Below, piece after piece: positions 11,703-61,598 of a DNA stretch of 61,598 bases (position 1 is the stretch's first letter; each line of letters opens with the position of its first letter). The notes under the pieces were generated by a model. The model did no database searches and was not told the origin of the DNA. It saw only the letters and a list, made by a program, of their open reading frames with translations. Source of the stretch: Candidatus Iainarchaeum sp. (GTDB taxonomy: Archaea > Iainarchaeota > Iainarchaeia > Iainarchaeales > DTGL01); contig JAWANJ010000002.1 in the NCBI GenBank assembly GCA_038895395.1, forward strand, positions 1-61,598. The letters are read 5' to 3'. A program made the position numbers and the translations under genes.

Positions 11703-11708
11703 CTAAAG

Positions 11709-13535: not shown

Positions 13536-13540
13536 CTCTC

Positions 13541-20937: not shown

Positions 20938-20983
20938 TAAAATTTTTATTTATTCTCTTGCTAAATGTAATTTTGGTGATTTG

Positions 20984-40804: not shown

Positions 40805-41226
40805 CTTGGCAAGCCTCCGCGTCTTTTTGCCATAGCATGTAAATTTCTAGCTGCTTGAAGCTTAGCTGTTCTTTGAGCTAGGTCCAAAGATGAGCTTACG
40901 GGGGAATTTTCATTTTCAGCCATGGCTGCGCGTCTGTCGCTGGTCATACCACCGATAAAGAAAAAGTCAACAAGCATGCCACTAATACCTAGGGTCAGAA
41001 GCACATAAAATAAATATATTCCACCAAAAAAAACCCAATACTCAAATATTATAAACCAAGATATGCCTAATATGAGCAAAACAGCAAGTTGCCTGTTTTC
41101 AACGTGATTTAAAACAAAAGAAATTATAGAGATAAGTGCAAATATCTTGAGCACAAGCATAAAGTCTTGTATAATCTCAGTAAAAAGCATTAGTTGTGAT
41201 AGGAGCAAAATTTGTATAATTTCCAT
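40801..41226 (-). CDS. small membrane protein (3-4 TM) with a basic C-terminal tail
   Basis: 141 aa, 51 nt downstream of giant gene G1. Tail: RRAAMAENENSPVSSSLDLAQRTAKLQAARNLHAMAKRRGGLPR. Confidence 0.55.
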   Translation of the reverse strand: MEIIQILLLSQLMLFTEIIQDFMLVLKIFALISIISFVLNHVENRQLAVLLILGISWFIIFEYWVFFGGIYLFYVLLTLGISGMLVDFFFIGGMTSDRRAAMAENENSPVSSSLDLAQRTAKLQAARNLHAMAKRRGGLPR

Positions 41227-41277: not shown

Positions 41278-44200
41278 TCAATTACAACTCCTTCTAGTAA
41301 GGACATTGATCACTGAATTTTCTTTAAGAGCTTTTGGATTCCACCACAGTGACATGCTATTGTCATTAGCATCTACACACAATAGCCCTTCTTTCGCCTT
41401 TTCAATGAGCTCTTTTATAGATCCAACTTCTGGGTTTTCTGCACCTTTTAAGTTATGTGCGATATGCTCACTGAGCTGTTGATCTAAAAACTTAACATTT
41501 GGCGAAGCGGAAGTCAAAACATAGTTCTTACCTTGTGGAGAGAAAAACACTGAACTGAAAAAGTCGTTCCTTATTTCCATGCCTCTGTCAAATTCCAGGC
41601 CATAAGTTTCGGGTTCAAGCTTTTTATCTGGGTAATTCAAAATTTCACTTAAACTCTCGTTTTCTGATGACTTACAGCTTTCAATCCAATTCCAATAAGC
41701 TAAATTGTCTCCAACATCTGTTGTTTTTCCGTTTTCTAAAAGTTTGTAACTTGCTGTTAATTTTTCGTCTAATTTTTTTGAGGTTTGATCTGAGACCTTC
41801 ATAATTGCTATTGAAGCAGTGTTTGGTGAAAACCTCAATAGTAATTCGTTTTCCTTAATTGTGCCACTCAAGATGTTTCCACGCGTTTTTGGATCAACGT
41901 TTGTATATTTTATATCATCTATTATTTCTGTCCTAACCTTTACCAGTGGGGCGCCTTTGCTACCTTCAGTTCTAAGCTCTATTCCACCATAATTGCTAAT
42001 AGTAATTGGTTTGCTAGTATTCTCATAACCACTGCCATATCCAATTCTACCATTAGAGCTCTTTAGGCCCACTTCACCATCTATCGGCCAATAGTAGAAC
42101 AAAGATTCTGGCTCTGGTGGGGAGATTTTACTGTACTTGACCTTAACCAAAGCGTTTGGTTTGTTGTTTCTAAAGAAAGAAAAACTATTGTTAAAGTCAA
42201 TCTCAAGAAATACGTGATAGCGCCCAGGCCCAAGCAGCTTTCTTTCAGGGTTTCCAGTTTCAAATGCTAGGGCATTTTGACTGATAAAGTACTCCTTAAA
42301 GCCCCCGCTGTTTTTGAACCAAAATGGAACTTCAAAGAATGTTTGTGTTGTGTAGTACTCCGCAAAGTCACTCTTAAAATCTTCAGTGTAGCCGTCCATT
42401 ATCAATAACGCGTCAAACTCCAACAATTTTTTCAAAAATTGAATCTTTTCCTGCACAGTTGAACCAGGCCAACCACTGGGCCACTTAATTTCTTTTACAT
42501 TAACATATTCATTCCAATTACTTAAATTTCTGTCAATAAAGTAAAATAAAGCGGGAACACCCTCAATTTTCTTTGTGCTATAAGGTATCCAGCACTCGCC
42601 GTTATCTGCTGATATGGTGAACGCTACAGTAACTTCTTTGCTTGTGTTGCAGCCCCTACTACATTGAGTAATATATGCTAAACCAAAGTAAACATCATTT
42701 TTGCCTTTATCGAGATTGTCAAACAGGCACTCAACAGTGGTAACAGTATTCTTAACAACATTAATCTCTTTTTCACATTCTTTAGCATAGTCGCTACTCT
42801 TAAGTAAGAATTTAACTCTTAGCTTTTGATCTTCACTTGTTTTGTTTTCTATCGTGGCGCTCAGCGTAACTGCTGTTCTTGAAGCATTTAGTTTGTAATC
42901 TAAATTACTTATACCTACTTCATTGCTCCTAATGATGGCAGTTGATTTGCCATCCGTTGTGCTTTTAGAAATACCTTCACTCAAAACTGAACGTGGGTGT
43001 TTTGGACAGGCAAAGTAGTAATCATTCGCTTTGAAAAACTCTTCCAGCATGTAAAGCCTTTTTGTTAGAGCTATGCTATTTTGTACTGCATCGCAGTATA
43101 TGGCGCTTTCATTTTCAGCATCGCAAGAGTTCCAATCAATAGAATCCCATCTCCAATCAAGCTTTACTTTTGGGCTAACATCTTCTGCTAAATAACCTGT
43201 TTTTGTTCCCAAACTGCAACCTTTTAAACCACTGATGCTTTTTAGTTTGTCCCCAATATTTGAATTTGTTACAAATCTCAAATGGACTTTCTGTGAGTAT
43301 TCCCTTGTTTCAGTGTCTGGAACATTAAAAACACCAAAGTCAGCTTTGTCCCTTTCCATTTTGGGGTTTAAGTGTGTCGGGTCACCGTGTATGTGTTCAT
43401 TAACGACTATTTCTAATATTCCATACTCGCCCTTTTCTGCCGCGCGGTTTGTGTTGTTTTCAAAGTTTATTGTAACTATTTGTTCCTTCTTGCTATAATT
43501 GCTTTCTCCCTCTTCTTTGCTTAGTGCCACATCATAGGGTAGCTCTAAAACCTCAAGCCTTTTTATGTCGGAAGGTAGGTTTATTACGTAATCCATAAAA
43601 GCGTAAGTCGCCATTTGAACATCGCATTGTGCTCCAGAAATTGTAAAAAATGTAGTTATGGCAGCGCCTACAAAGCATAAAACACCCGCCCAAAAGCCAC
43701 CTTGTGTAGCGCAAGTAACGCCTGCGAGCAGTCCAGCACCCGCAGCTACTGCAACATTCACCCAAAACCCCGGTTTATCCAATGTTGCTCTCTGAAGGGC
43801 CTTATTCATCACACAATATTCAGGCAATTCTTCGCCTTCTCTGCATGCTGTGCATAGCTTTGCAGTTATGTTTACATCTTCAACCCACATCTTGTTGATC
43901 AAGTTTGCAGAATCCTTCCAATTGGTTTGTGCAGTTAGTATAAACTCATACCTATTCATGCTGAAATATTGTCCTTTTCCAGGTTCTATTATTGTGTCAA
44001 TAGTATCTATATACTGATATTCTGTTTCAGGTGCTTTCGCATACAATGTTATCCCATAAATTCCAGGTATTTGCTCTCTGTGTATTGTTATTGTTTTGGA
44101 GGTCTCATTCTTTGTAAATTTAAGTTCTTCGTATGGGACCAGAGTGATGCCACCTTCTTTTGTACCACCACGACATCTTGGGTCGTCCTTGCATAGCCAA

Positions 44201-47200
44201 ACCGAGATATTTATGTTGCATGAATTTGCATCTATAGTCATTGTGGTTTCATTTTGTTCTGGTTTTAAAACAATCTTTTTTGGATAGCGTATGCAATCCT
44301 TTAAATTCACAATCAGGATATTGGCATTTATTTTTGAATCAGCTCCAACAAAGACAAGCCCTTTGTCTGTTTTTATCTGACCATCGAACTCAATTGTAAA
44401 AATTGCGGTTTCGCCTTTGTATTCTTCTCCGGGTTTGAAAGTGATTATTGTAGAGTAAGTGCCAGAACGTAACTCGTTTTCAAATTTATCAAACAATTTT
44501 GTCCAAACACCACTTCTTAAAATCTTTGTAACTGTTGCTCCACCGGGGGAATTTATTGTGATTTCCACAGCCCCAGCTTTTTTTGAGTTTGATGCCCAAG
44601 TAAGCTTTGCTTGGAGATTTTCAAGATCTACGGGTTTGCCGTTGCTTACACACAAGTTAGATAACTTAACTTCTGTCTTTGCTAGGTTGTCTACAGTTGC
44701 TATGTTCCATTCTGGTACATTTGGGCCTGATAAAGATATACATGGGGCGTTTTCTGGCAAACCGCCTAAAGAGACATTTGCAGTAAAAGGAACAACAAAA
44801 GTATATGTCAAAGAGTGCTTTTGTACCAACACAATAATTTCTATGCTTCCAGATATTTGAGTGTTGCTCTGTAATAGTGACTCTGCATTTGGCGAAAGTA
44901 GCACTTTAAGTGCAAAGTCCAGCTGGTCTTTTGGTTTTACTTTTTGTCCAACAACCGTTGTTGCGTTTGCATTCATTGTTTTTTCATCCAATATATCATA
45001 AAAGTTTCCAACAAATCTTACACTCTTTAACAAAAGTTCTGAGCCGCTTTTATTCTCCAGACTCAAGACTATCTTTTCTTCTGTCTTTGAGGATGTGTTT
45101 AAGCTAACAGAAACACTTTCTGGTACAACGCGTGCAACATTAGAGTCGATAGTAATGACTTTTTTGAAAGGAGAATAACCCATTTTTTCAGCAGTTATTT
45201 CTACTCTGGTGTTTGGTAGTGATTCTACTAACTTAAAAACTGCAAGCCCATTGGCATCAGTAAGTTGCTGAACCACTTCATTAGTGCCATCATCATGTGT
45301 TCTGTGCATTGTTACGAGAACATCCTTAACCTTTTTCTTTTCCCCATCTCTTATATTAACCTTAAGCTCATATTCTGTGAATGGTGCCAATTTCTCTGGT
45401 TCAATGTTTACGTCGAGCTTTCCGACAGAGTAAACCTTTATTGGAACTACTTTGGAAAAAACTACAAATTTGTCAGCAATTATGTCTATTGCTATATTAG
45501 TTGTTGTTTCATCGTTTGTTTTGAACCTTATGTTTGTATTTAATGTCTTTCCATAATCAAATCCAACTAAGTTTTCTTTAAACTCATTGTCTTGTGGCAT
45601 ATACTCTTTTTGCTCGATATCAGCTGTTATCAACATCTTTTCAAAGACCAACGCTGAATCTGACTTTCCTTGTGTTTTGTTTTTTATTCTAATCTCTAAC
45701 GAACCATATTCTTTTTGTGAGTTGTTGAGCAAGTCTAAAATAAGATTGTAGTCTCCAAACAGCACTGTTGAGTAGGGTTCCTTTAAGAAGATATCCTCTT
45801 GTGCATCGTACATCCAAACGCCTGTAACACAAAAAAGCTCTTTGCAAACCCCTTCAGAGCCTTCATAAAATCTAATTTCATGCGTTTTAGCATATAGAGC
45901 ATCCTTTGTGGATGTTCTCTCTAGATCGCCAAGCTCTTCATCATAAGGTTCTCTTACATATGCAGTGTTGATAACCGCATAGCTTCTATAATGGAAAGTT
46001 ATGGGTGTTTTTGGTCTTGTAGAATCCTTGATTTTAATTTTTATTGGTACTGTGTATACAGAGGCTTTGGGGCTCAACCACTCTATGGATACCCATTTTC
46101 CGTCTGATCCAACAATTTCCTCTAGCGCTTCGGACTTTGGCGGATTATATGTTTTACCTATTCTAACCATGGTTCCTTTGATGTCAACGCCCTTTATAAA
46201 TGCTGGCTCCAAATTAACATCACTTTTTTCACCTATTCTAAAGTGGAATCCAACTTTTGAAGCACCCGGTGGGTAAAAAAGCATAAATTTGGCAACATAC
46301 TCTTTGCCTGCCTTGATGCTAGCAGAAGCTCCGCCATTTTGATCAAAGATACCTAAAAATTCAATCTTTGGTTTTGGAAGCTCACCTTCTTTGAGCAACA
46401 CTGCTTTTATTTCATATGTTTCGTTTGGCCATAATTGTATGGTTTCACTTTCATAGTTAAGAAAGCCATCTTTGCTTACCACAACATATATGCTTTGGGC
46501 TGCTTTAACCTCATATTCCTTTTCACCATCAACCATAACAATTTTGCCCTTTGTAAGAGAATTTCTATCTATGGAGGAAAAAACTTCAAAATAAGACTCC
46601 GGAATCTTAATACCGCGAGAATCAAATGCACTTACCTTAAGAATGCTCTTGCCAATCGTTATGGTAACCTCGAAATAATTGTTTTCGTCTGGTATTATTT
46701 TCTTAGCCTGCGCTGCAGAACCTCCAGATGCTGGATATTTTATAACAAAAGGATATACCTCTTCACTTAACCAGCCCAAAACAAATTCAGCTATGCCATT
46801 AGAGTCTGTAAGCTTATAGTTTTGACTCGAAGGAAGTTCAACAATAGAGTCAGTAGCTTTGTACTTAAACATTACCTTAGCATCTTTTACAGGTGCTCCG
46901 TCTTCATCAAGAACTTTTACAATAGTTCGCCCACTGTTAGCCTCAGTTATTCTTTCGAGCTCAACAGTTAAAGATTCCATTGAAGAGCTGATGTTTATGT
47001 CTAAAGTTTTTGGGAAATATCCTTCTTTTTTTGCAACAACAGTATATTTGCCAAAATCAAAAAAAGAAAATCTAACAACACCGCCTTCTTTTGTAATATC
47101 GCTTGCAATTGCTTTTTTATCAAATAGGACTTTGACTTCTACGTTCTCTACAGCACTTTGAGTTTCCATTTCAATTGTTCTAACTAATAAAACCGCACTT

Positions 47201-48165
47201 ATTTTTTTGCTAAGTTCCACATAAACCTCTGTTGTTTCTTTTGCTCTGACAACTGCAGTTATACAATTTCCTGAATAAGTTTGTTCCGGGTCTGTAGCGA
47301 AAACATTGTACAACCCAGGAAGCAGACCATCAAAATCAACTAACCCATAGCCTTGTGTATGAGCAACCTGTTTTGTGCCATCTTTTTCTATGTTTACGAC
47401 TATATTTTTTTTAAGTATCAACTCTTTTTTTTCATCAACAATTTTTACCCTTAGAGCGCCTTTAGGTATTTCAATCTCTTTGAAAATAACTAGAATTTCA
47501 GTCCCTTTCTGGATTGCTCTCTCAAATTCATGGTTTTCCAACTCCGCATTTTCAACCTTTAACTCTTTACAATCCAAAGGCAATGTAACTTCTATGTAAC
47601 CATCTTTGTCAATGTCAACTTCCTTCCAAGGGTTGATTGACTTATTCGAACAACTCAGCCAAACAGTTACAAATTTCCCTCTTGTTGAACCTTTGCTTGT
47701 TTCAAATCGTAATATTCTTTTTTCCAATGGTTTTTCTCTAAGTTTAAGAGTTAGTGTTTTATCTGTATCCTCTTTAATGGTAAAGTTCCATTCCTCATCT
47801 AAATATAAAGGATGCTTAACTACAATCCGTACCACTGCATTTTCGTCAACACTAAATGAAATTTTTCCTTTATCATCAGTCCTTCTAATTTTTGGTTCGT
47901 TTCCAATAACAAAATTTACATCAATTCCAGATATGGGCGCCCCTTTTTCATCTTTGAAATAAACTGTGAAAGTATAACGCTTTGGTGGTTTTGTTGGTTC
48001 TTGACTGAAAAAGAGCCAATATGCAAAAAAAGCTAAAATTATTAGTAGTATAAGCACAATTGGCAGGGCTTTTGGAATTCCTCGTCTTTCACAAAATGCA
48101 ATGTACCTTTCTTTTAGAGTTGGTGATGAATCTTCTTCTATAAAATCCATTATCCACACCAACAT
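41278..48165 (-). CDS. giant surface protein G1 (2295 aa)
   Basis: Uninterrupted 6.9-kb ORF. Architecture: N-terminal TM anchor (nt ~48005-48070), six beta-sandwich repeats, a conserved core, a two-helix hydrophobic hairpin (FWVNVAVAAGAGLLAGVTCA-TQG-GFWAGVLCFVGAAITTFFTI, nt 43639-43767), then a ~780-aa C-terminal region. Colinear with G2 and G3. The likely start is the second ATG (MDFIEE, nt 48150), which is preceded by GGTG. Confidence 0.85.
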   Translation of the reverse strand: MLVWIMDFIEEDSSPTLKERYIAFCERRGIPKALPIVLILLIILAFFAYWLFFSQEPTKPPKRYTFTVYFKDEKGAPISGIDVNFVIGNEPKIRRTDDKGKISFSVDENAVVRIVVKHPLYLDEEWNFTIKEDTDKTLTLKLREKPLEKRILRFETSKGSTRGKFVTVWLSCSNKSINPWKEVDIDKDGYIEVTLPLDCKELKVENAELENHEFERAIQKGTEILVIFKEIEIPKGALRVKIVDEKKELILKKNIVVNIEKDGTKQVAHTQGYGLVDFDGLLPGLYNVFATDPEQTYSGNCITAVVRAKETTEVYVELSKKISAVLLVRTIEMETQSAVENVEVKVLFDKKAIASDITKEGGVVRFSFFDFGKYTVVAKKEGYFPKTLDINISSSMESLTVELERITEANSGRTIVKVLDEDGAPVKDAKVMFKYKATDSIVELPSSQNYKLTDSNGIAEFVLGWLSEEVYPFVIKYPASGGSAAQAKKIIPDENNYFEVTITIGKSILKVSAFDSRGIKIPESYFEVFSSIDRNSLTKGKIVMVDGEKEYEVKAAQSIYVVVSKDGFLNYESETIQLWPNETYEIKAVLLKEGELPKPKIEFLGIFDQNGGASASIKAGKEYVAKFMLFYPPGASKVGFHFRIGEKSDVNLEPAFIKGVDIKGTMVRIGKTYNPPKSEALEEIVGSDGKWVSIEWLSPKASVYTVPIKIKIKDSTRPKTPITFHYRSYAVINTAYVREPYDEELGDLERTSTKDALYAKTHEIRFYEGSEGVCKELFCVTGVWMYDAQEDIFLKEPYSTVLFGDYNLILDLLNNSQKEYGSLEIRIKNKTQGKSDSALVFEKMLITADIEQKEYMPQDNEFKENLVGFDYGKTLNTNIRFKTNDETTTNIAIDIIADKFVVFSKVVPIKVYSVGKLDVNIEPEKLAPFTEYELKVNIRDGEKKKVKDVLVTMHRTHDDGTNEVVQQLTDANGLAVFKLVESLPNTRVEITAEKMGYSPFKKVITIDSNVARVVPESVSVSLNTSSKTEEKIVLSLENKSGSELLLKSVRFVGNFYDILDEKTMNANATTVVGQKVKPKDQLDFALKVLLSPNAESLLQSNTQISGSIEIIVLVQKHSLTYTFVVPFTANVSLGGLPENAPCISLSGPNVPEWNIATVDNLAKTEVKLSNLCVSNGKPVDLENLQAKLTWASNSKKAGAVEITINSPGGATVTKILRSGVWTKLFDKFENELRSGTYSTIITFKPGEEYKGETAIFTIEFDGQIKTDKGLVFVGADSKINANILIVNLKDCIRYPKKIVLKPEQNETTMTIDANSCNINISVWLCKDDPRCRGGTKEGGITLVPYEELKFTKNETSKTITIHREQIPGIYGITLYAKAPETEYQYIDTIDTIIEPGKGQYFSMNRYEFILTAQTNWKDSANLINKMWVEDVNITAKLCTACREGEELPEYCVMNKALQRATLDKPGFWVNVAVAAGAGLLAGVTCATQGGFWAGVLCFVGAAITTFFTISGAQCDVQMATYAFMDYVINLPSDIKRLEVLELPYDVALSKEEGESNYSKKEQIVTINFENNTNRAAEKGEYGILEIVVNEHIHGDPTHLNPKMERDKADFGVFNVPDTETREYSQKVHLRFVTNSNIGDKLKSISGLKGCSLGTKTGYLAEDVSPKVKLDWRWDSIDWNSCDAENESAIYCDAVQNSIALTKRLYMLEEFFKANDYYFACPKHPRSVLSEGISKSTTDGKSTAIIRSNEVGISNLDYKLNASRTAVTLSATIENKTSEDQKLRVKFLLKSSDYAKECEKEINVVKNTVTTVECLFDNLDKGKNDVYFGLAYITQCSRGCNTSKEVTVAFTISADNGECWIPYSTKKIEGVPALFYFIDRNLSNWNEYVNVKEIKWPSGWPGSTVQEKIQFLKKLLEFDALLIMDGYTEDFKSDFAEYYTTQTFFEVPFWFKNSGGFKEYFISQNALAFETGNPERKLLGPGRYHVFLEIDFNNSFSFFRNNKPNALVKVKYSKISPPEPESLFYYWPIDGEVGLKSSNGRIGYGSGYENTSKPITISNYGGIELRTEGSKGAPLVKVRTEIIDDIKYTNVDPKTRGNILSGTIKENELLLRFSPNTASIAIMKVSDQTSKKLDEKLTASYKLLENGKTTDVGDNLAYWNWIESCKSSENESLSEILNYPDKKLEPETYGLEFDRGMEIRNDFFSSVFFSPQGKNYVLTSASPNVKFLDQQLSEHIAHNLKGAENPEVGSIKELIEKAKEGLLCVDANDNSMSLWWNPKALKENSVINVLTRRSCN

Positions 48166-48179
48166 TTACCTATTTTGCT

Positions 48180-51100
48180 TTAGTCTTTTATACACTGTGA
48201 AGGTATGCTTTCTATAGTGTTCTTTAATGACGAATTGATGATCTCTTGCTGATTCCAGAAAAATATCGCTCTTGAGTCACTTCCAGCACCGGCGATGCAA
48301 ATTTTCTTTTCTTCCACTAACCTAAGTATCTTTTCTATTGAGGTTATTATTGTCTCTTCTAAGCCACCAGCCTCTACACGATTTCCAGTACCTTTTGGAG
48401 TTATAAAGCTTGCACTGTCCATAGCACTCACAATCTCGAGTAAAGCTGTACTTTCCTGTGGAGTATACAAGACAGTCTTAAGGAATGTATCCCCTTTTCT
48501 TATCACGTTGCACCATTCAATACCATATTGGTGTGTATCAAAACTTCCAGCACATTGGGTTCTACCAACACCTCCACGAATGTCTCTTTTGTAGTTAAAA
48601 GCTTCTGTCACATCAACATCACTGAAGTCTTTACAGCCTTTTGTAACACCAGCCCATGTGAAAAGATTACTAGACGCTTCCTGAGGTTTACCATTTATCG
48701 TAAGCTGGTAGAACACATACGCTTTTGTTCTTTCACCTCCGCTTACCTTGAGTATTATTGGTGTGACAACGCTTGGGCTATAAATCATACTTATACCACT
48801 GGCCGCTTTTTCAAGTTCTAAAACAACCCCTGGAGCATCATTGTGCAAAGTTTTAAAGTCTTTTACAACGCGGGCCTCTATCCACCCGCCAGGTATTGGC
48901 ACCGAGTTTGCAATTGTGGTTGTTCTTACTGGTTGTCTTATGTCCTCATTTATTTTTACAGTTTCTTCTGATTTTTGCCTGTAGTTTACTCCATACCCTT
49001 GTCGGCCGTTTTGGCTGTCGACACCTATAAGTCCGTCAAAGGGCATGTAATAGAACACAGAGTCTGGCTTTGGTGTGTCAAGGCGCTCAAATATCACTTC
49101 TATTTTCGCATCAGGCGTGGTGTTTTCAAACAAACACCAACAATTGTTGTTATAATCAATATTTATTTTGATATTATATTTTCCTGCTGGCAGATAGCCA
49201 GCTTCAGGCCTTAAGAATGATGACTTAAACTCAAACAGTTCTGGGTTTGAAAAGAATTTTCCAAGCCCAGTTTCTCCCTTATACCAAGATGGAGTGCTAA
49301 AGAAGTCTTTTGTTTCAGAGAACTCATGGAAGTCTCTTCTAAAGTCTAGCGTATAGCCATCTTGGATAAGATATGCATTAAAATTCACCAGTGATAATGC
49401 TTCTTTTAGGTTTGCGTTTGTTGGGTTGGCAGCAGCAAACTCTGCTAAGCGTTCAGTGGTATAAGGCTCACATTTTTCAAAGATTCCGGTTGGAGCACCA
49501 ACTGAGAATCTTGTGCTCAAAATATCATTGCCAAGGTTTTCATTTTTACAAGTTCCCGGACATGTGCTAAGCTGTGGACTAACTCTAATTGTGGCTTCAT
49601 ACAAACCTTCTGCAAGCTCATTAAATGTGCAACTAACCTCGCTATCGTCAATCACTTTTATTGCTTTTTCACCTTCTGGACAGCTCAAAGTTGATCCATC
49701 TTTTACAACATTTATAGATACGTTAACAGTTAGCTCTTTTTTGTTGTTGCTTGAGATTATGCCAATTACTTTGGCATTAGCTCCACTTTTTTCAATCTTT
49801 ATTTTTGTTACAGCAACGTCAAGCTTTAATGAGTCTAATTCCTGACTTCTTTCGTTCAGAATCCCTTCAGCTGAAGGACATTTCAGTTTTTGGCCTCTTA
49901 GCAATTCATCAATCCTTCTTATTTTTTTAAGCAACTCAATACTTAACTGAGTTGCATCGCAATAGTATCCTAAACCACCTTCATCACATTCATTTATAGC
50001 AATATCTTTCCAATTCCAAGCAAGCTTTATCTTAGGTAGAGCTTCCTTGCCAGTTGAGCCCACAAGAGCACCAACCTTACAACTAACCTCGGGCTTAATT
50101 GTAATCTCGGTGGGTTTTGACCTATGGGAGTTGAACTGTAGATGGAACTTTTGCAAATATCTTTCACCACCAATTACTGTTGGCTCCATCTTTTTCATAG
50201 CTTCAGCATCTTTCTTCATTCTAGTGTCATAGTTGGTGTCATACTCTAAACGATTTCCATCAACCCTAAGTACGCGATATATTGGTTTGTATATGTCTTC
50301 TTGTTGTATGCCATTGTTTTTGAATATAATTTCAATCTTCTCGAAACCTAGTGGTTTATCGGGTGTGGTTTCGACTTTACTATCGCCTTTTTGAACACTA
50401 ATCAGAGTTTCAATTTCCTCTTCTAAACCTTTTTGTATTACAAGTTGTAAGTCTGTTATGTTCAAATCCCTTACTGCAGCAACCACCTCAAGTACGCCAA
50501 CGTTTTGGCTTTGCTGCCAGTAGGTATATAAAGTGCCGGCTATGAAACCTATCAATGCCCCAGTCCAGGGGTCGTCTATGTTTATTATATTGCTAAAGAC
50601 ATTAAGACCGCCTTGTAAAAGACTTCCTATACTTTCTAATGAAAAGAACCCGACAGGTGCTGAGGTTACCATAACAGTTTGGTTGGGTTTCAATTTTGTG
50701 CTTACAACCGTGCTTGTTTTTCCAGCACTACTTAGATTGCAAAAGCTATTGTTGCAACTCTTAAACTTGTAGCAAGGCCCACTTTTTGAACACTCTACAT
50801 CATATTCACATGTAACCGCAAGTTCGCAATCACAAACCTTGCTCAAACCTGAGCCATAAGCTTTTTGACATTTGGCTAGTGTATCATAGCATCCGAAGCA
50901 CAAATTGCTGCTAGGTGCTATATCAGCACTAACACACTGGCCATTGTAGCACTTTGCACCAGTTGCGCCACAATCCATAAAAATGCCTCTTTTACCACAA
51001 CTGTCTTTCCAATAAAGCTTGTCATCCTCGCAATAGTATCCTTCAACAATACATTCTTCTCCAGACATAGCGCCAGAAGATCCACATCTGCTATTATTAC

Positions 51101-54100: not shown

Positions 54101-56327
54101 CAGCTGCCGACTCTTTGACCTTTACTTTAACATATACATATATTATTCCATCGCTTTGCTTGCTCCACTCAAGGTTTATCCACTTAGAGCTTTCTGCACT
54201 TAAAGAGGCAAGGTCATATGTCGTGCCTTCTTCTGGATTATAAGAAGTTCCTCTTATCATTTTTGGGTTTCCACCTGCATAGACCTCCTTTATGAAAATA
54301 AAGTCTTTTTCCATAATGTTATATTTACCTACCCTTACGTGAGCACCAAAGCGGTCATATTGAGCAGACCTGGGTACAGAAATTTTAAACTTTGCAATAT
54401 ATTCTTTGCCTGCAGCCAAAACCATTACATTCTTTTCGTCCTTGAAAAGACCTAAAAACTCGATCTTTATTTCACCACTAATCCTTTCAGCTTCAAGCCT
54501 TATGTTCATGCTCCTTTGTTCATTTGGCGCAAGCACAATCCTCTGGCTTATGTAAGTAGCATACTCTGGGTGACTAACAAAAAGATAAAATGAAAGGCCC
54601 GCATCTATGTTTATATCAAGTTCACCACTTATTTTTTCTACCTTTAATGGACCTTTTATAACCTTATCCGTGTAAGCGTCTTTTACTATAACATCACTAA
54701 AAGGTAGAGCTTCGTCATCAGTGTTTGTTACCTTTAGCTTTAAAGTTGCTTTTGGTATATCAAGCACAATAATTGCTTCTTGTTCAATGCCAAGCCTAGG
54801 TATAAACTCAATTACATCGCTCCAGTTGCTACCAAATCCTTTATAAGCAAAGAATTTGTATTTTCCAGCGTACAAACCTTTAAATTCTGCTCTTCCATTC
54901 ATATCAGTAATCATTTCCTTTAACCCAAGAGCATTTCCATTACTGTCATAGGCAGCTACCTTTGCGTTTGGTATTGATATGCCCTGAGAATCAACTACTT
55001 TCACAATAACTAAGCCCCCACAGTCATTCGCATAAGGCTGTAGTTCTAATTTTATGATGCCCTCTGATTTTCTCACATCAGTAAGCCTATGCACGCAATA
55101 GTCTGGGTGATTTATCACTAATAAGAAGTTTATATCTTCACAAAGGTGAAAATCAACCCTGCCTTCTGAATTAGTGTCAGCAGAAGCATATTGTTTGTTA
55201 CCTACAAAAAGCGTTGCCTTTGCTCCTTCGAGTGGTTTTGAGGTTGTTTTATCAACTACTTGGATTTTTATACTTCCAATATACCTTGGTGTAAGCTCTA
55301 GGCTAACAGTTCTATATTCGTTAGCTCCAATAGTTATAAACTGAGATTCAGCAGATGTATACGTAGTAGTGGCTTTTGTTTTAACCCTATAACTTCCGGG
55401 CAAAACCTCAAATAATACTTGACCACCACTCGTAACTCCAGATTCAACGAAAACAGGTGTTGCACCAGTGTCTTTTTCAAGGTCAACTATGATGTTTTCA
55501 GATGGTGCCTGACCTTTGAATGTTACATTTACTATTATTTTTCCTTTTTGTTCTGGGGGTTTCATCTCAACAATCTTTTTTAGTAAAATAGTCGACCCAT
55601 CTGTAACGCGAACACCTTCTTTAGCTTCATAGCCTCTGGTGCTTAAAGTTACAATCAGTGGAAGGCAGTCAATTTCAACATCATCTATTTGTACTTCCCC
55701 ACCGTGTGTTGTATATTTCTCAGCATCTGCGGGCGGATTTGCTTTTTTGTTAGAGCACTCAAAAGAAAGCGAAATCCTTTGGACGATGGGCTCTTTATTG
55801 TTTTCGTCTAAAATCCTAAAGCTTACTGTTTGCGTACGGATAATTTCGGTAAGTAAAAAGTTAATAACTACATTTTCATCTTCTTCAATTAAAACACTTT
55901 TTTCAATGGGATTCGGCTTGAATCCTTCTTTAGAAACACGCAAAGTTATTGAGTCACCCTTTTTAACAGCAATCGCTTCTGATAGAGTCCCAGCAGTATT
56001 AGTGGCACTCCTATAAACCTTTTCACCCAAGAGCATTTCAACATTTGCCCCTTCTAAAGGCCTTTTTGCACCAAACCTGTCTTGATACTGAACAAACACG
56101 TTAACGTAAACATCTTTTTTGAATACACTTATTGGCAGAAAGAAAATTACTAACGCTGCTATTAATACTAGTGCCAATATTATTAGCAAAAGGAATGAGG
56201 GAAATACCTTATCAATAGCGTCAGTTATCTTATTTATAGGTATCTTTGTGCTAATCCTGTCTATAATTTCGTAGTATCTGTCCTCAAGATGCAAATAAAG
56301 TTCACGCAATGCACTTATTACGCCCAT
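48180..56327 (-). CDS. giant surface protein G2 (2715 aa), paralog of G1 with a 448-aa Cys-rich insertion
   Basis: Uninterrupted 8.1-kb ORF ending 14 nt upstream of G1. Same architecture as G1: TM anchor (nt ~56130-56205), six CarboxypepD_reg-like repeats (e.g. VIVKVVDSQGISIPNAKVAAYDSNGN...TDMNGRAEFKGLYAGKYKFFA), then shared motifs in the same order. Confidence 0.85.
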   Translation of the reverse strand: MGVISALRELYLHLEDRYYEIIDRISTKIPINKITDAIDKVFPSFLLLIILALVLIAALVIFFLPISVFKKDVYVNVFVQYQDRFGAKRPLEGANVEMLLGEKVYRSATNTAGTLSEAIAVKKGDSITLRVSKEGFKPNPIEKSVLIEEDENVVINFLLTEIIRTQTVSFRILDENNKEPIVQRISLSFECSNKKANPPADAEKYTTHGGEVQIDDVEIDCLPLIVTLSTRGYEAKEGVRVTDGSTILLKKIVEMKPPEQKGKIIVNVTFKGQAPSENIIVDLEKDTGATPVFVESGVTSGGQVLFEVLPGSYRVKTKATTTYTSAESQFITIGANEYRTVSLELTPRYIGSIKIQVVDKTTSKPLEGAKATLFVGNKQYASADTNSEGRVDFHLCEDINFLLVINHPDYCVHRLTDVRKSEGIIKLELQPYANDCGGLVIVKVVDSQGISIPNAKVAAYDSNGNALGLKEMITDMNGRAEFKGLYAGKYKFFAYKGFGSNWSDVIEFIPRLGIEQEAIIVLDIPKATLKLKVTNTDDEALPFSDVIVKDAYTDKVIKGPLKVEKISGELDINIDAGLSFYLFVSHPEYATYISQRIVLAPNEQRSMNIRLEAERISGEIKIEFLGLFKDEKNVMVLAAGKEYIAKFKISVPRSAQYDRFGAHVRVGKYNIMEKDFIFIKEVYAGGNPKMIRGTSYNPEEGTTYDLASLSAESSKWINLEWSKQSDGIIYVYVKVKVKESAAAEELSIMWRAWGLRKGILVRDPEDITLGNALSDRELYAKTYERVYSVGEERLCTEKWCTVFKALDIEENVAVYIDRSYSAKVGKQYRLIFSITNNSKFETDSYSKVKLKIFNSEKNIVFSNYEIYGETVVKGTANASETSYIEIGDVKPNTEIHGYINFSPTTGKFGGITIRLHDPTRFAHVFEETIFVDIIAAKSFIIDFKVGDTFQSEAPILTSGVENKIIARIRDKQTNLEVSDVLVKIKDPNGNTMLQTTTTSLGLAEVKLPALMPGEKLVLTAEKPDYEEAKKEIFADGNVLGIEPSEIGLQLNVVSKTEDSAVVRLVNKTAMPLKVYGIKLSGDFYGAIDERKVRDWLVGEYVGKEIKPHDKLDIALKVSLSDFGKTLTQAKTLEGILTASVSSVKAFGHVWNSETKVKISIGLGGEVEDPSCLVVSIKEWKTKTKSNEVSTDFSVKNNCTVDGKPIDLKNLSARIEWQSNRVGDYYVSIGDVALELSGSYPKIIKGTFGAEEEISALLKFLPDAGITGTAKAKVIITGEHYTNAGKQVLSASIDTEIEIISLEDCIRFDKTLVRIVDYNEATIKIETKECKVPIDFMLDTKIAVSEKEFTMKPDDSKEIIVMPSQQDIPGQYPIYVMVKSMGESQYSFKKLIRVIIEPDGCLRLNRYEFDIYDDENNPYDGFDTALLINDCYKRTETITISYDERDWWEAIKTGAIWGLVGFVYGGVRSLAAGKTFFGTPIPSNVCNKAGYKYCGTKNLCKDEKIVVVDNITCCASECITEEARLDKEWCKKKGYTYCGPGNCDLSQGKEVVVEGVVCCTGKCKDTKIETPEKVCTSAGKYFCKEDELCPDAAYAVVGNVTCCSKQCVKESTKPPTGTTRPTVTTSPIVTSPATDEEMCKTYYLNSRRIQSYEECYPDCTFSMQTAERFVLCCKNDCAGPEQPTTGSGLISAVGPKIPGCYSTEIECAAKAWNNPTISTGGCDCYAAITCIYDEFGKCYRFGYCNNSRCGSSGAMSGEECIVEGYYCEDDKLYWKDSCGKRGIFMDCGATGAKCYNGQCVSADIAPSSNLCFGCYDTLAKCQKAYGSGLSKVCDCELAVTCEYDVECSKSGPCYKFKSCNNSFCNLSSAGKTSTVVSTKLKPNQTVMVTSAPVGFFSLESIGSLLQGGLNVFSNIINIDDPWTGALIGFIAGTLYTYWQQSQNVGVLEVVAAVRDLNITDLQLVIQKGLEEEIETLISVQKGDSKVETTPDKPLGFEKIEIIFKNNGIQQEDIYKPIYRVLRVDGNRLEYDTNYDTRMKKDAEAMKKMEPTVIGGERYLQKFHLQFNSHRSKPTEITIKPEVSCKVGALVGSTGKEALPKIKLAWNWKDIAINECDEGGLGYYCDATQLSIELLKKIRRIDELLRGQKLKCPSAEGILNERSQELDSLKLDVAVTKIKIEKSGANAKVIGIISSNNKKELTVNVSINVVKDGSTLSCPEGEKAIKVIDDSEVSCTFNELAEGLYEATIRVSPQLSTCPGTCKNENLGNDILSTRFSVGAPTGIFEKCEPYTTERLAEFAAANPTNANLKEALSLVNFNAYLIQDGYTLDFRRDFHEFSETKDFFSTPSWYKGETGLGKFFSNPELFEFKSSFLRPEAGYLPAGKYNIKINIDYNNNCWCLFENTTPDAKIEVIFERLDTPKPDSVFYYMPFDGLIGVDSQNGRQGYGVNYRQKSEETVKINEDIRQPVRTTTIANSVPIPGGWIEARVVKDFKTLHNDAPGVVLELEKAASGISMIYSPSVVTPIILKVSGGERTKAYVFYQLTINGKPQEASSNLFTWAGVTKGCKDFSDVDVTEAFNYKRDIRGGVGRTQCAGSFDTHQYGIEWCNVIRKGDTFLKTVLYTPQESTALLEIVSAMDSASFITPKGTGNRVEAGGLEETIITSIEKILRLVEEKKICIAGAGSDSRAIFFWNQQEIINSSLKNTIESIPSQCIKD
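50568..51911 (-). other. Cys-rich insertion of G2 placed between the two hairpin helices (helix a 51912-51974, helix b 50517-50567)
   Basis: Contents, in order:
- Three ~40-aa 6-Cys repeats (C.K.GY.YCG...C.....VVV....CC...C; nt ~51510-51875).
- A Thr/Pro linker (TKPPTGTTRPTVTTSPIVTSPAT, nt ~51425-51500).
- Two ~55-aa 8-Cys repeats (GCY.T...C.KA......CDC....TC.YD....C.KF..CNNS.C; nt ~51072-51236 and ~50725-50894).
- Other Cys-rich modules. Confidence 0.8.
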
Positions 56328-56435
56328 ATTATCATCAAATTTAATGTTTTTAACTTTAATATATTTTTTGTTTATTATATTATTTTGCTTTTTATTTATC
56401 TAATATCCATTTGCTGCCCAGATTTGTTGTCCAGT

Positions 56436-59400
56436 TTACTGCCCAAACAAAGTTGGATTCCATCTTAACCTAAGTTGAGCTCTATTTATGTTATCTATAC
56501 ATATCTCCCCTGAAGCTATTCTTTCAATGTACTCCTTAAGTGATGGTTGTCTTATTGCTTCTATGATCCTCACAGCGCCGCCTTCAATTCCACGCGTTTC
56601 CGGTGTGCTATACTCTTGACCTTCATATGTTAAAGTGCTCAAAACTATTGGGTTTTTGGCACAAAGAACCTCAAGTTTTAAGTATTCATCAGCTGCTTTT
56701 GCAGGTACATAGCTTACAGAAACCCATAAACCTTGTCCTAATATTAGCTTTGATGCTTCAATGCTTTGTGACCAGCCACTGCAAAAGCTATCTGGTTTTT
56801 GTAAGCCAAATCTGTCAACACTAAACTGAACTTTTTCTTCGCCTTCAGAGCCCGCTCCTTGCTCATTGGGCACTAAAGAACCAACTTTGTGCCATACAAA
56901 TAACTCTTTTATATCTCCATAATATTTGTCATCACTTAGTTTGTAGTAAATCACATTTTGGCCCTCAGTTGGTGAAATTATCCTTAAAAGCACCGGGTAG
57001 CTTGGCACATATTCAATTTTTCTAGACTTAAGATCTATATTCAAAACAGTGCCGGTGCGACTTTTCTCAAATCTGCTATTATAATTGAGTGTAATTGTAC
57101 CAATGCCCGGCTTTCTTGGATAGATGCGCTCACCATGTTCATTGTATAAAAGCTCTGAAGGTACGGCACCAGCAAGTGTTAACCCCAAGCCATAATTTGC
57201 ACCAGTACTTTCTTTGCCTATCTCGCCATCGAATGACATATACATTAATGGATTTTCAGAAAACTTTGTTTTTAAGCGCTTGTCTATAGCTTCTAGAGAT
57301 TCTACTAGGGCCAGCTTTACAATATACTTTGATACAATAATTTTAGGAGGTCTGCCTGCAAAGTCTATTGCTATTTTAGGTTCAATTCTGTAAGCATATC
57401 TGCCGGAAGCAATACTACATTCCGTGCTTTTTTGTACCATTTCTTCTGAAAAGTTAGCATCTTCATAGCGCTTGAACTCAAGCTGATCTACATTAAGGCC
57501 TATTTGCTTAAGTGTTTCATTTCCTTTATCTAGATCTTCTATTAAAGCTCTACTCAGATTATCAGCCTTAAGATAGCTCTCTGCCTTAGCTATGAGTGAT
57601 TCTTCACTAGGTGTGCTTAACACATCAAGTGCTCTAACCCTTATGTATTCTTCCATCGCCCCAGAAAGACCTGGTTTGTTAATTACTGCAAGCATAAATA
57701 CAGTCCTATTTGCAAATTCAGATAAAAATAGGGTCCATTCCTGTTCTTTTGCTGTAATGGTTACTTGACCTATGGTTGCTGTTATTGGTAAATTCCTGTC
57801 ACCAAACATGATGTTGTTTCTTACTCCAATTGAAAGCTGTTCATACAGGCTAATATACTCAGCAAAGGTTATAACATAAACACTTTGTCTTGGTAGTTTA
57901 ACCTCGTCCGCTACCTGTTTAAGTTTACTCCAAATTAATTGAGCATTGGCGCTATAGTCAATATCTTTAGAAACAATAGCCAGTGCATTTTCTATCTTTA
58001 TATCGTTTGCATAGCATTGCGCTAGTATGCTATCAAACTGGGCATGAGACATTTTCATGGAGTCTAATGCAGCCAACTCATTTTGTGGAGCTTTTATAAT
58101 ACTGTTCAAAGTAGCTTCAATTTGTGCTACATTACACTTTTCCAGTGGTACAGGTGGCTGCCCAAGAATAGTACCTTCTTTTGTAACAAACAAAAGAATC
58201 GGCTTATTTGAAAAATCATCTCTCACAACAATCTGTGCCTTTGAGAGTTTGTAAAGTTTTCCTTCCTGGGAGTTTATCTCACGCATTAATTCTTGGTCTT
58301 GGCCTATGATTGAAATTACACTTAAATACTCTGCCGGAGCACTCTTGTTTATCTCTTCAATCTTTTGATTTATTTTTCTTATTTTTGATGCAATTTGCAT
58401 TATAAATTGCGCTCCATCACAGAAGTACCCCTCTCCCGATGGTTCAGGTTCACACTTTCTACTTGTTATCTCATCAGGTCGCCATGTAAACAGCAATCTG
58501 TCAAATCCATATACAGAGTAACTTTCCTGACTGTTGCATGGCTTAAGCATACCCCAACTTGGCATAACATCTATTTTTGCAGCTCTATTTTCACAACCTT
58601 CAGATAACTGTGAAACACCCCTGTTCAAAGCATTTACCACTACTTTTAGCTTTGCATCTTGAGTACCTTTCTTGTAATAAACCCTGGTTACTTTTATTGG
58701 TAGGTCTATGTTTATCTTTGCACACTCAGTTATCATTTTACTTCTGTCAACTTTCATTACAATATGATGCCTGTTATGCGTAAGTTCGAAATAAAGCTTT
58801 ACACCCGACTTTGGATCTTCCCATGAAGATAAACCAATACTAGCTATATAGTCGTCTTTACCACAAAAAGCTCTAGCATTTGAATCACTTGAAGGATCAA
58901 CCTCTTCGTTGGATCTTGCGTAAGGCAGCACAAGCTCAGTCACAGGTGGGTTTTCATTCCAAACAAACATGTCATCTATGAAGTGACTATCAGTTAGCAC
59001 ATCTGGTACAATGAGAGCGTTGGGGTTTATACACTGTGCTGGTTCAAGATTCTTGGAGCCTTTGTTTAATAAGCTGCCAATAAGACCAAGCCATGCCAAT
59101 GGATTTTCAAATGTCACACCAACAGGGAAGTATTTATCTCCGAGGTATGGTACATACATTGGCACAGCTATGATGCCTGGAGAAACAGCAGCAAGATACT
59201 GTTCAGTTGCTATAAACCTTATGTTTCCAACAATTTCTTCTACCGAACCTTCAAAGCTGATTGGTGCTGTTTTTTTGATCTCTGGATCAAACCACAGATA
59301 TATTTCCATTATTTGCCACTCTTCTTTATCCGAAACTTTTTGCACCTCATTTTTTCCCATTACAATGTTTTTTATCATAGGGCATGGCCCTTCAAGCGAT

Positions 59401-61598
59401 GTGCCTCCTGTTGCTGGTGAATAGCAATGAATATTATTTAATGTTAAATGTTTTAGTACATAGCCAAGATGGTAACATTTATTGTAGATCCTTGCTACTG
59501 TTTTCTGCCACCCCAAAAAGTTTGCTTTTAGCACAGTTGGTTCTATCGTAGGTAAACATTCCTCTTGGATTTCGTCTCTTCTTACAACTTTGACAGAAAA
59601 GCTATCTATTTCTTCAGCCCTCTTGCTTGATGATGAAAACTTTGCAAGCATCTTTACGTTAAACTTTCCTTTGCTTGTTGATGGCTCAATTATGAAACTA
59701 GCTGATGAGCCAGACCCAACTTTTTTGCTCGATGGTTTGACCAATAAACCGGAATCAAACTGTATAGTTATATCTATGTCTTGGAGACATGTGTTGTCAA
59801 CAATTATTTCTGCAGTTTCCGATTGGCATTTCCATTGTGTGCTTTGCCCTGGTTGTGAAGTTTGCCATGGGGGAACATACTGCGCTGTTGGCCAAATAAG
59901 GTTTTGCTGTGTTTGTTGCTGTTGTGTAACATCATAAGGATCTCTATCAAAGTATTTGCTGTTTAGACCCCACCCAGTGTCAAAGCCACAACTTTTTAGT
60001 TCTATATCAGTTGCTCTCACAACGTGCACACACTTCAAAAGATTGTTTATTGTTATGCTCGTGCTTAAAGTTGCTTTTGGAATCTCAACGCCCTTTTCTG
60101 AGTAATGAGTTGCAGAAAATTCAATTCTTGGTTGTACACTTGCACTAGTAATTTGATCATTAGGCCTAAAAAACAAGATGAGTTCCTGCTCCGCGTTCTT
60201 TGAAAATGATTCGCTAAGCAATGTCCATTGAGGCAAAATTTCAGTTAGTTCGAGTTCTTCACTGCTTACCTCAAAAGTTCCGACTGGACTTTCGCCAAGC
60301 CATCTTATCCTCACACTAAAATCTTTGAGTTCTACTGGCATTCCTTGAACAGTACAGTTATTTTTTACTGTTAGCACAAGCTTCTTTTGTTCCCCATAAC
60401 TTTTTATTTCCCAAGATTTTGGTTCAATCAAAATACATGCGGTGGTATCAAGTGCACCTTCAAGAGTTATTCTTATTTTTAGTTCTACTGAAACAGCCCA
60501 ATCCTTTGCAAGCTGGTTGTTATCCACACTTATTGTTATTGAACCCGCTAGTTCTTGTATATTTTCTATTTCTCTACCTTTCTCAGTGAGTTTTGCCTTT
60601 AGTTTTATAGAGGTATTTGATGTTGGTTTAATCTCCTTTCCAACAGCCAAAGTGCTACCACTTATTGATACAAGATCTTCAAGACCTGAAAAGCTGATAT
60701 CTTTTATATAAAGAGAAAAAGGTGCTACATTTTCCAAGTTAAGGGTTATATCTGCTTCTTCTCTTGCGTTGGGTTGAAGCTCAATGTCTATGCTGGGTGG
60801 CGTAACCTTAAGTACACCAGACTCAACTTTAATCTCTTGTATCAAAGTTCTAAATCCCTCCCGCGAAAGCTTTCGATTTTCTGCAGTTGGGAAGGTACGG
60901 TTTGAGAGAAAAACATACACCAAATTGTTATCAGGGTCAGCCCACGCACAGGTGCCTGTGAATCCTGTATGTCCAAACACACTTTGAGGGCAATAATCTG
61001 AGGTTGGGCCATCGCCTGATTGAGGTTTCATGAGCGGCTTATCCCAACCTATACCCCTTCGGTTGTCGTACTTGGCGTTTGGGCGCGAGTTAAACTTTTG
61101 CATAGTGGCTTGTGAAAAAAAATCTTCTCCTCCGTATTTTCCGCCTTGTAGGTTCATTTGCAGAATGGTAGCTATATCGAGCGCATTTGAAAAAAGCCCT
61201 GCATGCCCTCCAACACCTCCTTGAAGCGAAGCCATGGGGTCATGAACATATCCCCTGACAATCTGTTTTCGGTACTGCAAATCGTATTCACTGGGAGCAA
61301 TCAGATTACAGTCTGCTTTGCGCAGTGGGTTGTATCCAATGTTTTGCAAACCAAGCCTATCAAAAAGATTGTTTTGCAGATACACATCAAGCGTATAGCC
61401 CGTAATGGTTTCTATGATTTTTTGCAGAAAAAAAAAACCTAAATCACTGTATAAATACCCGAAGCCGCCGTATTTGTTGCGAAGTTTGGTCAGGCGGCTG
61501 TTGAGTGCCATTTCAAAAATCAAGTCGGGCAAATCTGTTCGTGCGTGGATGTTTTCACAAACTTCAATATTGAAAGAGTCGCTTTTTTAAGTTGTGAG
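56436..61598 (-). CDS. giant protein G3 (at least 1720 aa; 5' end outside the window)
   Basis: The frame stays open from the TTG at 61532 to the window edge (...SFNIEVCENIHARTDLPDLIFEMAL...). From aa ~236 onward it is colinear with the C-terminal ~1300 aa of G1 and G2. The N-terminal part is a beta-lactamase-family serine hydrolase domain. I see no long hydrophobic helix in the visible part. Confidence 0.8.
60825..61598 (-). other. beta-lactamase/PBP-like (class C-type) serine hydrolase domain at the N-terminus of G3, truncated by the window edge
   Basis: YLYSDLGFFFL (Y-x-N/D motif), GGVGGHAGLFS, GHTGFTGT (KTG-box equivalent, nt 60951-60971) and VYVFLSNRTFP are typical of the family. The SxxK motif would lie beyond the window. 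The domain ends at ...LIQEIKV and the G-core begins at ESGVLKVTPPSIDIELQ (nt ~60824/60825). Confidence 0.75.

Follow-up and report, generated by a model that had tools for sequence, protein, structure and literature searches.

A triad of giant paralogous proteins as a candidate cell-surface structure of Iainarchaeota

What do three giant genes, lying one behind the other at the end of an archaeal contig, build? The question is raised by contig JAWANJ010000002.1 of Candidatus Iainarchaeum sp. (GenBank assembly GCA_038895395.1), of which the whole analysed stretch of 61,598 nucleotides (nt) is called the window throughout, and it concerns three neighbouring open reading frames (ORFs) named G1, G2 and G3. 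The answer developed below from sequence comparison and predicted structure is that all three belong to a single family of membrane-anchored proteins, and that together they may form a conserved, probably heteromeric structure of the cell envelope or of cell contact, a reading to which we give an even chance. Giant surface proteins are a known theme in reduced genomes, with the SPEARE proteins of Nanohaloarchaeota and the large membrane proteins of Sukunaarchaeum as precedents (10.1101/2025.05.02.651781); the family, the triad and its C-terminal head appear to be newly described. Neither the family nor the triad was found described in full-text searches of the literature, and in public records the proteins are named 'carboxypeptidase-like regulatory domain-containing', 'Ig-like domain-containing' or 'hypothetical'.

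Homology and distribution of the triad

The initial annotation of this DNA reported three consecutive ORFs on one strand, separated by gaps of 14 and 108 bp. The ORF coordinates bear this out: all three are read from the minus strand, in the transcription order G3, G2, G1, with spacers of 108 bp between G3 and G2 and of 14 bp between G2 and G1.

41278..48165, minus strand: G1, ORF of 2295 amino acids (aa), assigned to the G1-type orthologue group, whose hidden Markov model (HMM) is the best scoring of the group HMMs
48180..56327, minus strand: G2, ORF of 2715 aa, G2-type orthologue group
56436..61532, minus strand: G3 ORF, 1698 aa counted from TTG

The three proteins had also been claimed to be colinear paralogues, and the motifs quoted for them were all recovered, either exactly where they had been placed or no more than ~45 nt away. 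Statistical alignment puts the similarity of the shared blocks far above chance, and blastp, profile comparison and joint alignment all uphold colinear paralogy. By blastp, G1 and G2 align at 27% identity over 1440 aa (E 2.5e-91) and again at 25% identity over 740 aa (E 5e-53), and G3 is matched both by G1 (E 3e-19) and by G2 (E 2e-29). Profiles were built from family alignments of the G1 type (A1, 11 sequences), the G2 type (A2, six) and the G3 type (A3, three), and hhalign joins G1 to G3 over 1621 columns (E 9e-81) and G2 to G3 over 1248 columns (E 7e-101). HMMs made from a single group recover the other groups at very low E-values, with the C-terminal half of G3 as the exception. This half was tested separately by realigning the last ~570-620 aa within each group and comparing G1 and G2 jointly with G3, which gave 327 colinear columns at an hhalign probability of 96.9% (E 3e-10) and a shared ..C....WNP terminus. 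A joint MAFFT alignment of the 20 sequences stays colinear along its full length and has one variable centre, referred to below as the hinge. On the strength of these alignments, G1, G2 and G3 are ancient paralogues of one membrane-anchored protein family. Long nucleotide repeats between the three genes were not found, nor were tandem repeats; the paralogues are thus old, and the array is not one that assembly has collapsed or duplicated. As the same array also recurs in independent assemblies, among them dozens of MAGs (metagenome-assembled genomes) and one complete genome, an assembly artefact is ruled out as its source.

Relatives of the triad are concentrated in the same archaeal lineage. 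Full-length orthologues of G1 (P0002-P0013), at 28-60% identity, occur in MAGs named Candidatus Diapherotrites or Iainarchaeum, and orthologues of G2 occur at loci L001-L003 and as proteins P0014 and P0015. An exhaustive HMMER search with the profile of the C-terminal head returned 835 cluster representatives (50% identity), 542 of them with E<=1e-30. Among the best 150 of these 835, 100 are at least 2100 aa long, the largest reaching 3251 aa, and in every one of the 150 the head ends no more than ~40 residues from the C-terminus. A scan of GTDB species representatives gave 69 loci, nearly all of them in Iainarchaeum/Diapherotrites or archaeal MAGs and one of them in the complete 1.05-Mb genome CP064981.1, which yielded a single locus; two oddly named bins with loci (Chloroflexi and Thaumarchaeota) are probably mis-binned. 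A separate scan of viral contigs found no relatives. When all ORFs of at least 500 aa were classified across 73 loci (the 69 from the GTDB scan together with L001-L004), the order G3-like, G2, G1 was seen nearly everywhere that the upstream flank was long enough, and an extra G1-like copy follows G1 in L035, L039, L046, L052, L060 and L070. The three orthologue groups predate the divergence of these lineages.

Architecture from membrane anchor to C-terminal head

Each protein comprises about 13 beta-sandwich domains, ~6 of prealbumin/Big type followed by ~7 that resemble macroglobulin (MG) or ASH domains; if extended, and assuming ~3.5-4 nm per domain, such a string could reach 40-50 nm. An N-terminal transmembrane anchor and beta-sandwich repeats had been proposed earlier for G1 and G2, and both are supported, the former by hydrophobicity and the latter by Pfam matches of immunoglobulin (Ig)/prealbumin type. 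The parts on which the argument depends are as follows.

48007..48069, minus strand: N-terminal transmembrane anchor of G1, aa 33-53 (Kyte-Doolittle 19-aa mean 2.8-3.0)
56121..56195, minus strand: N-terminal transmembrane anchor of G2, aa 45-69 (Kyte-Doolittle mean 3.6), preceded by a conserved ~40-aa peptide predicted to be cytoplasmic
46399..47997, minus strand: stalk of G1, aa ~57-589, tandem prealbumin/Ig-like beta-sandwich repeats recognised by Pfam
43831..46398, minus strand: mid-module of G1, aa 590-1445, ~7 further beta-sandwich domains with conserved Cys pairs, from AlphaFold2 (AF2) and Foldseek
43630..43773, minus strand: hydrophobic hinge segment of G1, aa 1465-1512, Gly/Ala-rich and bracketed by conserved Cys, from a hydrophobicity scan and orthologue alignment
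50739..51875, minus strand: Cys-rich insert of G2, aa 1485-1863 (379 aa), in units of ~45 aa with 6 Cys each, gapped in G1 and G3
41281..43488, minus strand: head of G1, aa 1560-2295, with the motifs W.W..C..YCDA.Q, FYY.P.DG.VG and WWNP and 8 invariant Cys
48183..50348, minus strand: head of G2, aa 1994-2715, matched over residues 1995-2703 by an HMM built from G1-type sequences only (i-E 4e-129, database of 1e6 sequences)

The anchor is a general property of the family, a transmembrane segment being present at the N-terminus in 96 of 100 full-length representatives. In G1 it is preceded by a predicted cytoplasmic peptide (aa 1-32), where deeper G1-type and G2-type members have a ~40-aa motif in common. 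The stalk beyond it matches a range of Pfam beta-sandwich families, led by CarboxypepD_reg (1e-17) and Big_1 (2e-12) and including MG4, Ig_DR_A0283-like, SdrD_B, SpaA, bMG3 and MG2. Pfam has no match to the mid-module of G1 (aa 590-1445), for which AF2 gives an all-beta model with a predicted local distance difference test score (pLDDT) of 83.8. Foldseek matches it best to arrays of Ig-like domains, first of all sperm central-apparatus chains of PDB entry 9ijj (E 1e-19 to 2e-18), which we take to be HYDIN-type ASH/PapD-like arrays of the axonemal central apparatus, the search output itself not naming them. Further matches are A2ML1, C3, C5, TEP1, CD109 and ECAM (E 1e-18 to 1e-13), as well as PrgB. 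The query-normalised template modelling score (TMq) of these matches is just 0.1-0.2 and their root-mean-square deviation (RMSD) 35-60 Å; on this modelled structure, the mid-module would share its type of bead with MG and Ig arrays and not their overall assembly. Invariant, mostly paired cysteines run all along the ectodomain, which is predicted to lie outside the cell because it combines Ig-type domains with such cysteine pairs.

It is at the hinge (aa ~1446-1559 in G1) that the paralogues differ. All G1-type orthologues examined carry here a strongly hydrophobic, Gly/Ala-rich stretch of 20-60 aa, which reads VAVAAGAGLLAGVTCATQGGFWAGVLCFVGAAITTFF in the G1 of the window and is enclosed by a conserved ..P.YC.. 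on its N-terminal side and a conserved GP.C[DE] on its C-terminal side. Of 100 full-length family representatives, 41 have a strong hydrophobic segment at the centre. In Pfam, the G1 hinge reaches 2TM or glycine-zipper families only at an insignificant E of ~0.1. The Cys-rich insert of G2, which has no match in Pfam or PDB, is flanked by two weaker hydrophobic segments of glycine-zipper-like character (aa 1447-1480 and 1893-1948); the position of a disulfide-rich insert within this pair speaks against a hairpin whose loop would be cytoplasmic. Nothing comparable is present in G3.

The remaining part, the C-terminal head, bears on the earlier claim that all three proteins share an unrecognised core. 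That claim stands in so far as no family can be assigned from Pfam, NCBIfam, PDB sequences or Foldseek against PDB and BFVD, which give generic beta-sandwich matches. It does not stand as a claim of an entirely new fold, ~850 aa of the core (G1 590-1445) being the MG/ASH-like string of beta-sandwiches described above; what truly lacks a match is the hinge, along with the ~700-aa head. The AF2 model of the G1 head is mostly beta (pLDDT 77.8, predicted template modelling score 0.68), and Foldseek against PDB and BFVD returned no global match to it (TMq <=0.15), just sub-matches of 100-130 aa to beta-sandwiches. Profile searches with the head gave no PDB sequence match and no Pfam match at E<=5. 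The head is new relative to every library searched.

Conservation is spread evenly over this architecture. The giants evolve faster than the family-B DNA polymerase (PolB) of the same genomes (59 vs 79%, 33 vs 59% and 28 vs 49% identity), with length and architecture kept, and G1 orthologues differ little in identity from stalk to mid-module to head (63/62/53% and 35/34/34%, for instance), the hinge alone being markedly more variable. A hypervariable tip, as expected of adhesins in an arms race, was not seen in this comparison of G1 orthologues. Even conservation without such a tip fits a heteromeric fibre, canopy or scaffold with many fixed contacts, and a floppy spacer bearing a terminal arms-race adhesin fits it less well.

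The foreign contig end and the gene neighbourhood

G3 requires separate treatment, as the contig breaks off within it. The initial annotation gave it at least 1720 codons, which is incorrect, the frame being closed by a TAA just 4 codons short of the window end. It also misread the N-terminus of G3, which in the window is a foreign and probably chimeric fragment.

60821..61598, minus strand: tail of a foreign, Bacteroidota-like gene with a beta-lactamase domain, fused in frame to G3 (from Pfam, protein identity, GC content and the in-frame TAA)
56436..60863, minus strand: genuine archaeal part of G3 (ORF aa 224-1698), corresponding to residues 977-2439 in full-length orthologues

The first 238 aa of the ORF hold a partial Beta-lactamase domain (positions 139-320 of the 329 in the Pfam profile, the catalytic N-terminal half being missing) and are 75-76% identical to residues 742-979, the extreme C-terminus, of 981-aa proteins that combine GH3 and beta-lactamase domains. 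Proteins of this kind are annotated in Bacteroidota, with Cytophagales, Flammeovirgaceae and Flavobacteriales among the named matches. From aa 224 onwards, G3 matches P0024 (residues 977-2439) at 67% identity and P0016 at 57%; P0024 comes from a Diapherotrites MAG, is named an 'Ig-like domain-containing protein' and has, within its 2439 aa, an N-terminal transmembrane helix and Ig repeats. The two parts meet in a short shared stretch, ..GFR.L.QE.., at which the bacterial proteins read SREGFRTLIQDVIYEALK and then stop, the archaeal ones continue through GRKTGFRKLVQEIKIESS and the window has SREGFRTLIQEIKVESG. GC content rises across the junction from 0.36-0.40 to 0.44-0.48 toward the foreign part, and the TAA near the end of the window stands where bacterial homologues have a sense codon. 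The G3 ORF does not contain a complete class C beta-lactamase-like domain with the catalytic SxxK, its upstream part being cut by the TAA and the contig end.

Chimeric assembly at the contig end is the most likely source of the foreign N-terminus. A real beta-lactamase fusion by horizontal transfer, for which nothing argues, is judged unlikely, given that orthologues start with a transmembrane segment and Ig domains, and it is disfavoured further by the lack of the catalytic half in what is a bacterial gene tail, by the jump in GC, by the contig end and by the premature stop. The window would then hold just the C-terminal ~60% of the real G3, joined to foreign sequence; the real protein is almost certainly ~2440 aa long, with an anchor and stalk like those of G1 and G2. 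If this were overlooked, the contig end would be annotated as an archaeal beta-lactamase fusion.

On the other side of the array, the triad is followed by a set of smaller genes, and the search for conserved synteny proposed in the initial annotation has shown that these neighbours, together with the order of the triad, recur across the phylum.

40801..41226, minus strand: p141, a 141-aa polytopic membrane protein directly downstream of G1
40484..40804, minus strand: p106, a 106-aa polytopic membrane protein, its gene overlapping that of p141 by 4 nt
39984..40439, minus strand: p151, a coiled-coil-like protein with only weak matches to families of coiled-coil type, kept in 9 of 11 loci
38481..39998, plus strand: p505, a 505-aa protein linked by synteny only, kept in 9 of 11 loci

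The shared order is G1, p141, p106, small membrane or coiled-coil proteins, the ~505-aa protein (encoded on the opposite strand), PolB and an M24 peptidase. At each of the 11 loci tested, p141 lies directly 3' of the last giant gene (30-69% identity), and p106 is likewise kept in all 11 (34-79% identity); the two are likely operon partners of the giants, as far as gene order can tell, and we infer that giants and partners are co-transcribed. Searches gave no family assignment for p141, p106 or p505 (for p505 in PDB, Pfam and NCBIfam). A reading of p505 as a degenerate HerA-like ATPase comes from our own inspection of the sequence and finds no support in searches of PDB, Pfam and NCBIfam. To the eye, the p505 motif TVVFGGQEKDR...PLIIIDWTDSF resembles a degenerate Walker A/B pair.

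The spacer between G3 and G2 (56328-56435) is AT-rich, 108 bp long, and contains two copies of the 16-nt direct repeat TTTAATATATTATTTTG (plus strand) along with TATA-like runs ~30-40 nt upstream of the ATG of G2, which may have a promoter of its own.

The rest of the window (GC ~37%) is archaeal in content, with split RpoB, fused RpoA, EF-2, EF-1alpha, PolB, CDC48, BpsA and seven transfer RNAs (tRNAs). That the DNA comes from a DPANN archaeon, as had been suggested, agrees with the protein matches: the source organism is one of the Iainarchaeota (Diapherotrites, DPANN) by sequence affinity, its nearest relatives being MAGs named 'Candidatus Iainarchaeum/Diapherotrites archaeon'. At 7914-15016 (minus strand) the A subunit of RNA polymerase is encoded by one fused ORF of 1262 aa with Rpb1 domains 1-5, and subunit B by two separate ORFs (491 and 608 aa). 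The seven tRNA genes (Thr x2, Glu, Met, His, Leu and Arg) all lie on the minus strand between 24022 and 32168, with small ORFs and HisRS between them. A 323-aa ORF at 20918-21889 (plus strand) has a sub-threshold Pfam match to the ligand-binding domain of neurotransmitter-gated ion channels (E 1.8e-4) and may be a relative of prokaryotic pentameric ligand-gated channels.

What the triad might build

The reading that we favour is that G1, G2 and G3, probably together with p141 and p106, would build one superstructure of the cell envelope, pictured as long fibres rooted in the membrane or as a canopy, spanning the surface layer (S-layer) or rising above it. The head would mediate contact of the surface with cells or particles, or else self-assembly, and the difference at the hinge, where G1 has a hydrophobic loop, G2 a disulfide-rich insert and G3 neither, would give the subunits non-redundant roles. 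The suggestion of a multi-component apparatus made in the initial annotation is plausible in this light, the triad order being kept phylum-wide alongside two small polytopic membrane proteins; hetero-oligomerisation is suggested by this co-conservation alone. Host attachment, which had been proposed at the same time, is possible and presupposes a host. The SPEARE proteins offer a parallel in scale, being very large membrane or surface proteins which take up a notable share of a ~1-Mb DPANN genome and have a presumed surface role (10.1101/2025.05.02.651781). Unlike them, the triad has no serine-protease or restriction-endonuclease domains by Pfam, is half the size (2295-2715 aa vs >5000 aa), starts with an N-terminal signal-anchor, forms a conserved trio of paralogues and belongs to a different phylum with no known host.

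Several observations weigh against the picture of a fixed, outward-facing assembly. N-glycosylation sequons show no clear enrichment. Four loci (L013, L018, L021 and L031) carry an extra G1-like copy, or tandem G1-like copies only, and such differences in copy number between loci mean that stoichiometry is not fixed. Were the central hydrophobic segment of G1-type proteins a single transmembrane helix, the head would be cytoplasmic, which contradicts a simple fibre. Iainarchaeota have also been reported as possibly free-living (PMC10936187), so that any contact partner would be hypothetical.

The triad might instead be purely architectural, a scaffold or spacer of the envelope that accompanies or replaces the S-layer, its rods setting the width of a pseudo-periplasm or forming a lattice without binding cells; we consider this unlikely, though it is the main rival. 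Such a role would suit a phylum-wide family with a single locus, at a conserved position near PolB, in a complete genome, as well as the many conserved Cys pairs of disulfide type and a conservation that is uniform along the whole length, stalk included. It would also suit the weak NOMO1-like beta-sandwich matches of some members, sub-threshold as they are in Pfam (E 0.014-0.054), NOMO being a rod-like spacer protein. NOMO of the BOS complex and other prealbumin rods likewise carry tandem CarboxypepD_reg/prealbumin-like domains on a single transmembrane helix, although in NOMO that helix is C-terminal and there is no large head. Against a mere spacer speak the faster divergence of the giants relative to PolB and the existence of three non-redundant paralogues with distinct hinges. 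Archaeal S-layer proteins themselves resemble the triad in being envelope proteins rich in beta-sandwiches, bearing cysteines or glycans and conserved within a lineage, but the triad proteins are much larger and come as three paralogues. Moreover, Pfam scans of the family detected no S-layer domain (S_layer_N/C, MSTP/DUF1608-like or csg-type), nor did NCBIfam for G1 aa 1156-2295, and a preprint (10.1101/2024.05.28.596244) puts forward a different protein, A0A2G9N319 of 1039 aa, for the S-layer of Iainarchaeota. An S-layer identity is weakened accordingly. Giant surface proteins with Ig repeats are commonly adhesins, and the triad could instead be a tandem duplication of independent, redundant adhesins which form no complex and bind a different substrate or host ligand each. 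The extra G1-like copies behind G1 would be in keeping with this, but three orthologue groups and their order have been conserved over deep divergence, the repeats are highly diverged and not near-identical, and the tip is not hypervariable, so that we find the idea improbable. In contrast to Bap, LapA and RTX adhesins, the proteins lack near-identical repeats and RTX or LPXTG matches in Pfam, and are anchored by an N-terminal transmembrane segment.

Two further rivals take their cue from single parts of the proteins. The loop at the G1 hinge might be membrane-active, inserting into a partner membrane as a fusion loop or glycine-zipper pore and so forming bridges or pores to a host. That the Cys-flanked segment recurs in all G1-type orthologues examined and in 41 of 100 family representatives, that the GxxxG-type segments of G2 surround a Cys-rich insert of extracellular appearance and are hard to fit to a hairpin in the cell's own membrane, and that other DPANN archaea make intimate contacts with hosts according to the literature all lend this some colour. 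Set against fusexins/HAP2 and class I fusogens, G1-type proteins show a Cys-bracketed hydrophobic loop; among the listed Foldseek matches of mid-module and head (the hinge lying outside these models) there is no fusogen, fusion protein or pore-forming toxin. With hinge matches to 2TM and glycine-zipper families insignificant, a segment that is poorly conserved in length and sequence and missing from G3, and no host known for Iainarchaeota, we regard a contact machine of this kind as improbable, a shade more so than the redundant adhesins; if it were true, the triad would open up a new class of machinery for fusing or bridging archaeal cells, with G2 contributing a disulfide-rich knob. Far less credible again is a membrane-anchored protease trap like alpha-2-macroglobulin or the thioester-containing proteins (TEPs). 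The MG-like string of the mid-module, with its Foldseek matches to A2ML1, C3, C5, TEP1, CD109 and ECAM of E. coli, and the MG4, bMG3 and MG2 matches of the stalk do recall that family. However, only the type of bead is shared, the global arrangement being different (TMq 0.1-0.2, RMSD >50 Å); the head model is mostly beta and not the alpha/alpha-toroid of a thioester domain (TED); CUB and a bait region are missing, and Pfam finds no A2M, TED or receptor-binding domains. G1, G2 and G3 lack the C.EQ thioester motif (CGEQ/CLEQ), and on this ground an alpha-2-macroglobulin identity is rejected. The HYDIN-type arrays, which score better still in Foldseek, are long Ig-like chains that make up an extended scaffold; those arrays are eukaryotic, cytoplasmic and bound to the axoneme, and as sequence similarity is lacking (8-9% identity) the type of domain alone is common to both.

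Three conserved giants claim ~2% of a ~1-Mb genome, and their conservation across the phylum suggests that the triad is probably a core component of the cell surface. Together with its two small membrane partners, it could be the main structure on the surface of these archaea, a phylum that has no cultured member and may be either free-living or host-dependent. The family can serve as a marker for Iainarchaeota and provides targets for metaproteomics, cryo-electron tomography and structure prediction, and, in the hinge, an element that can be tested for membrane activity.

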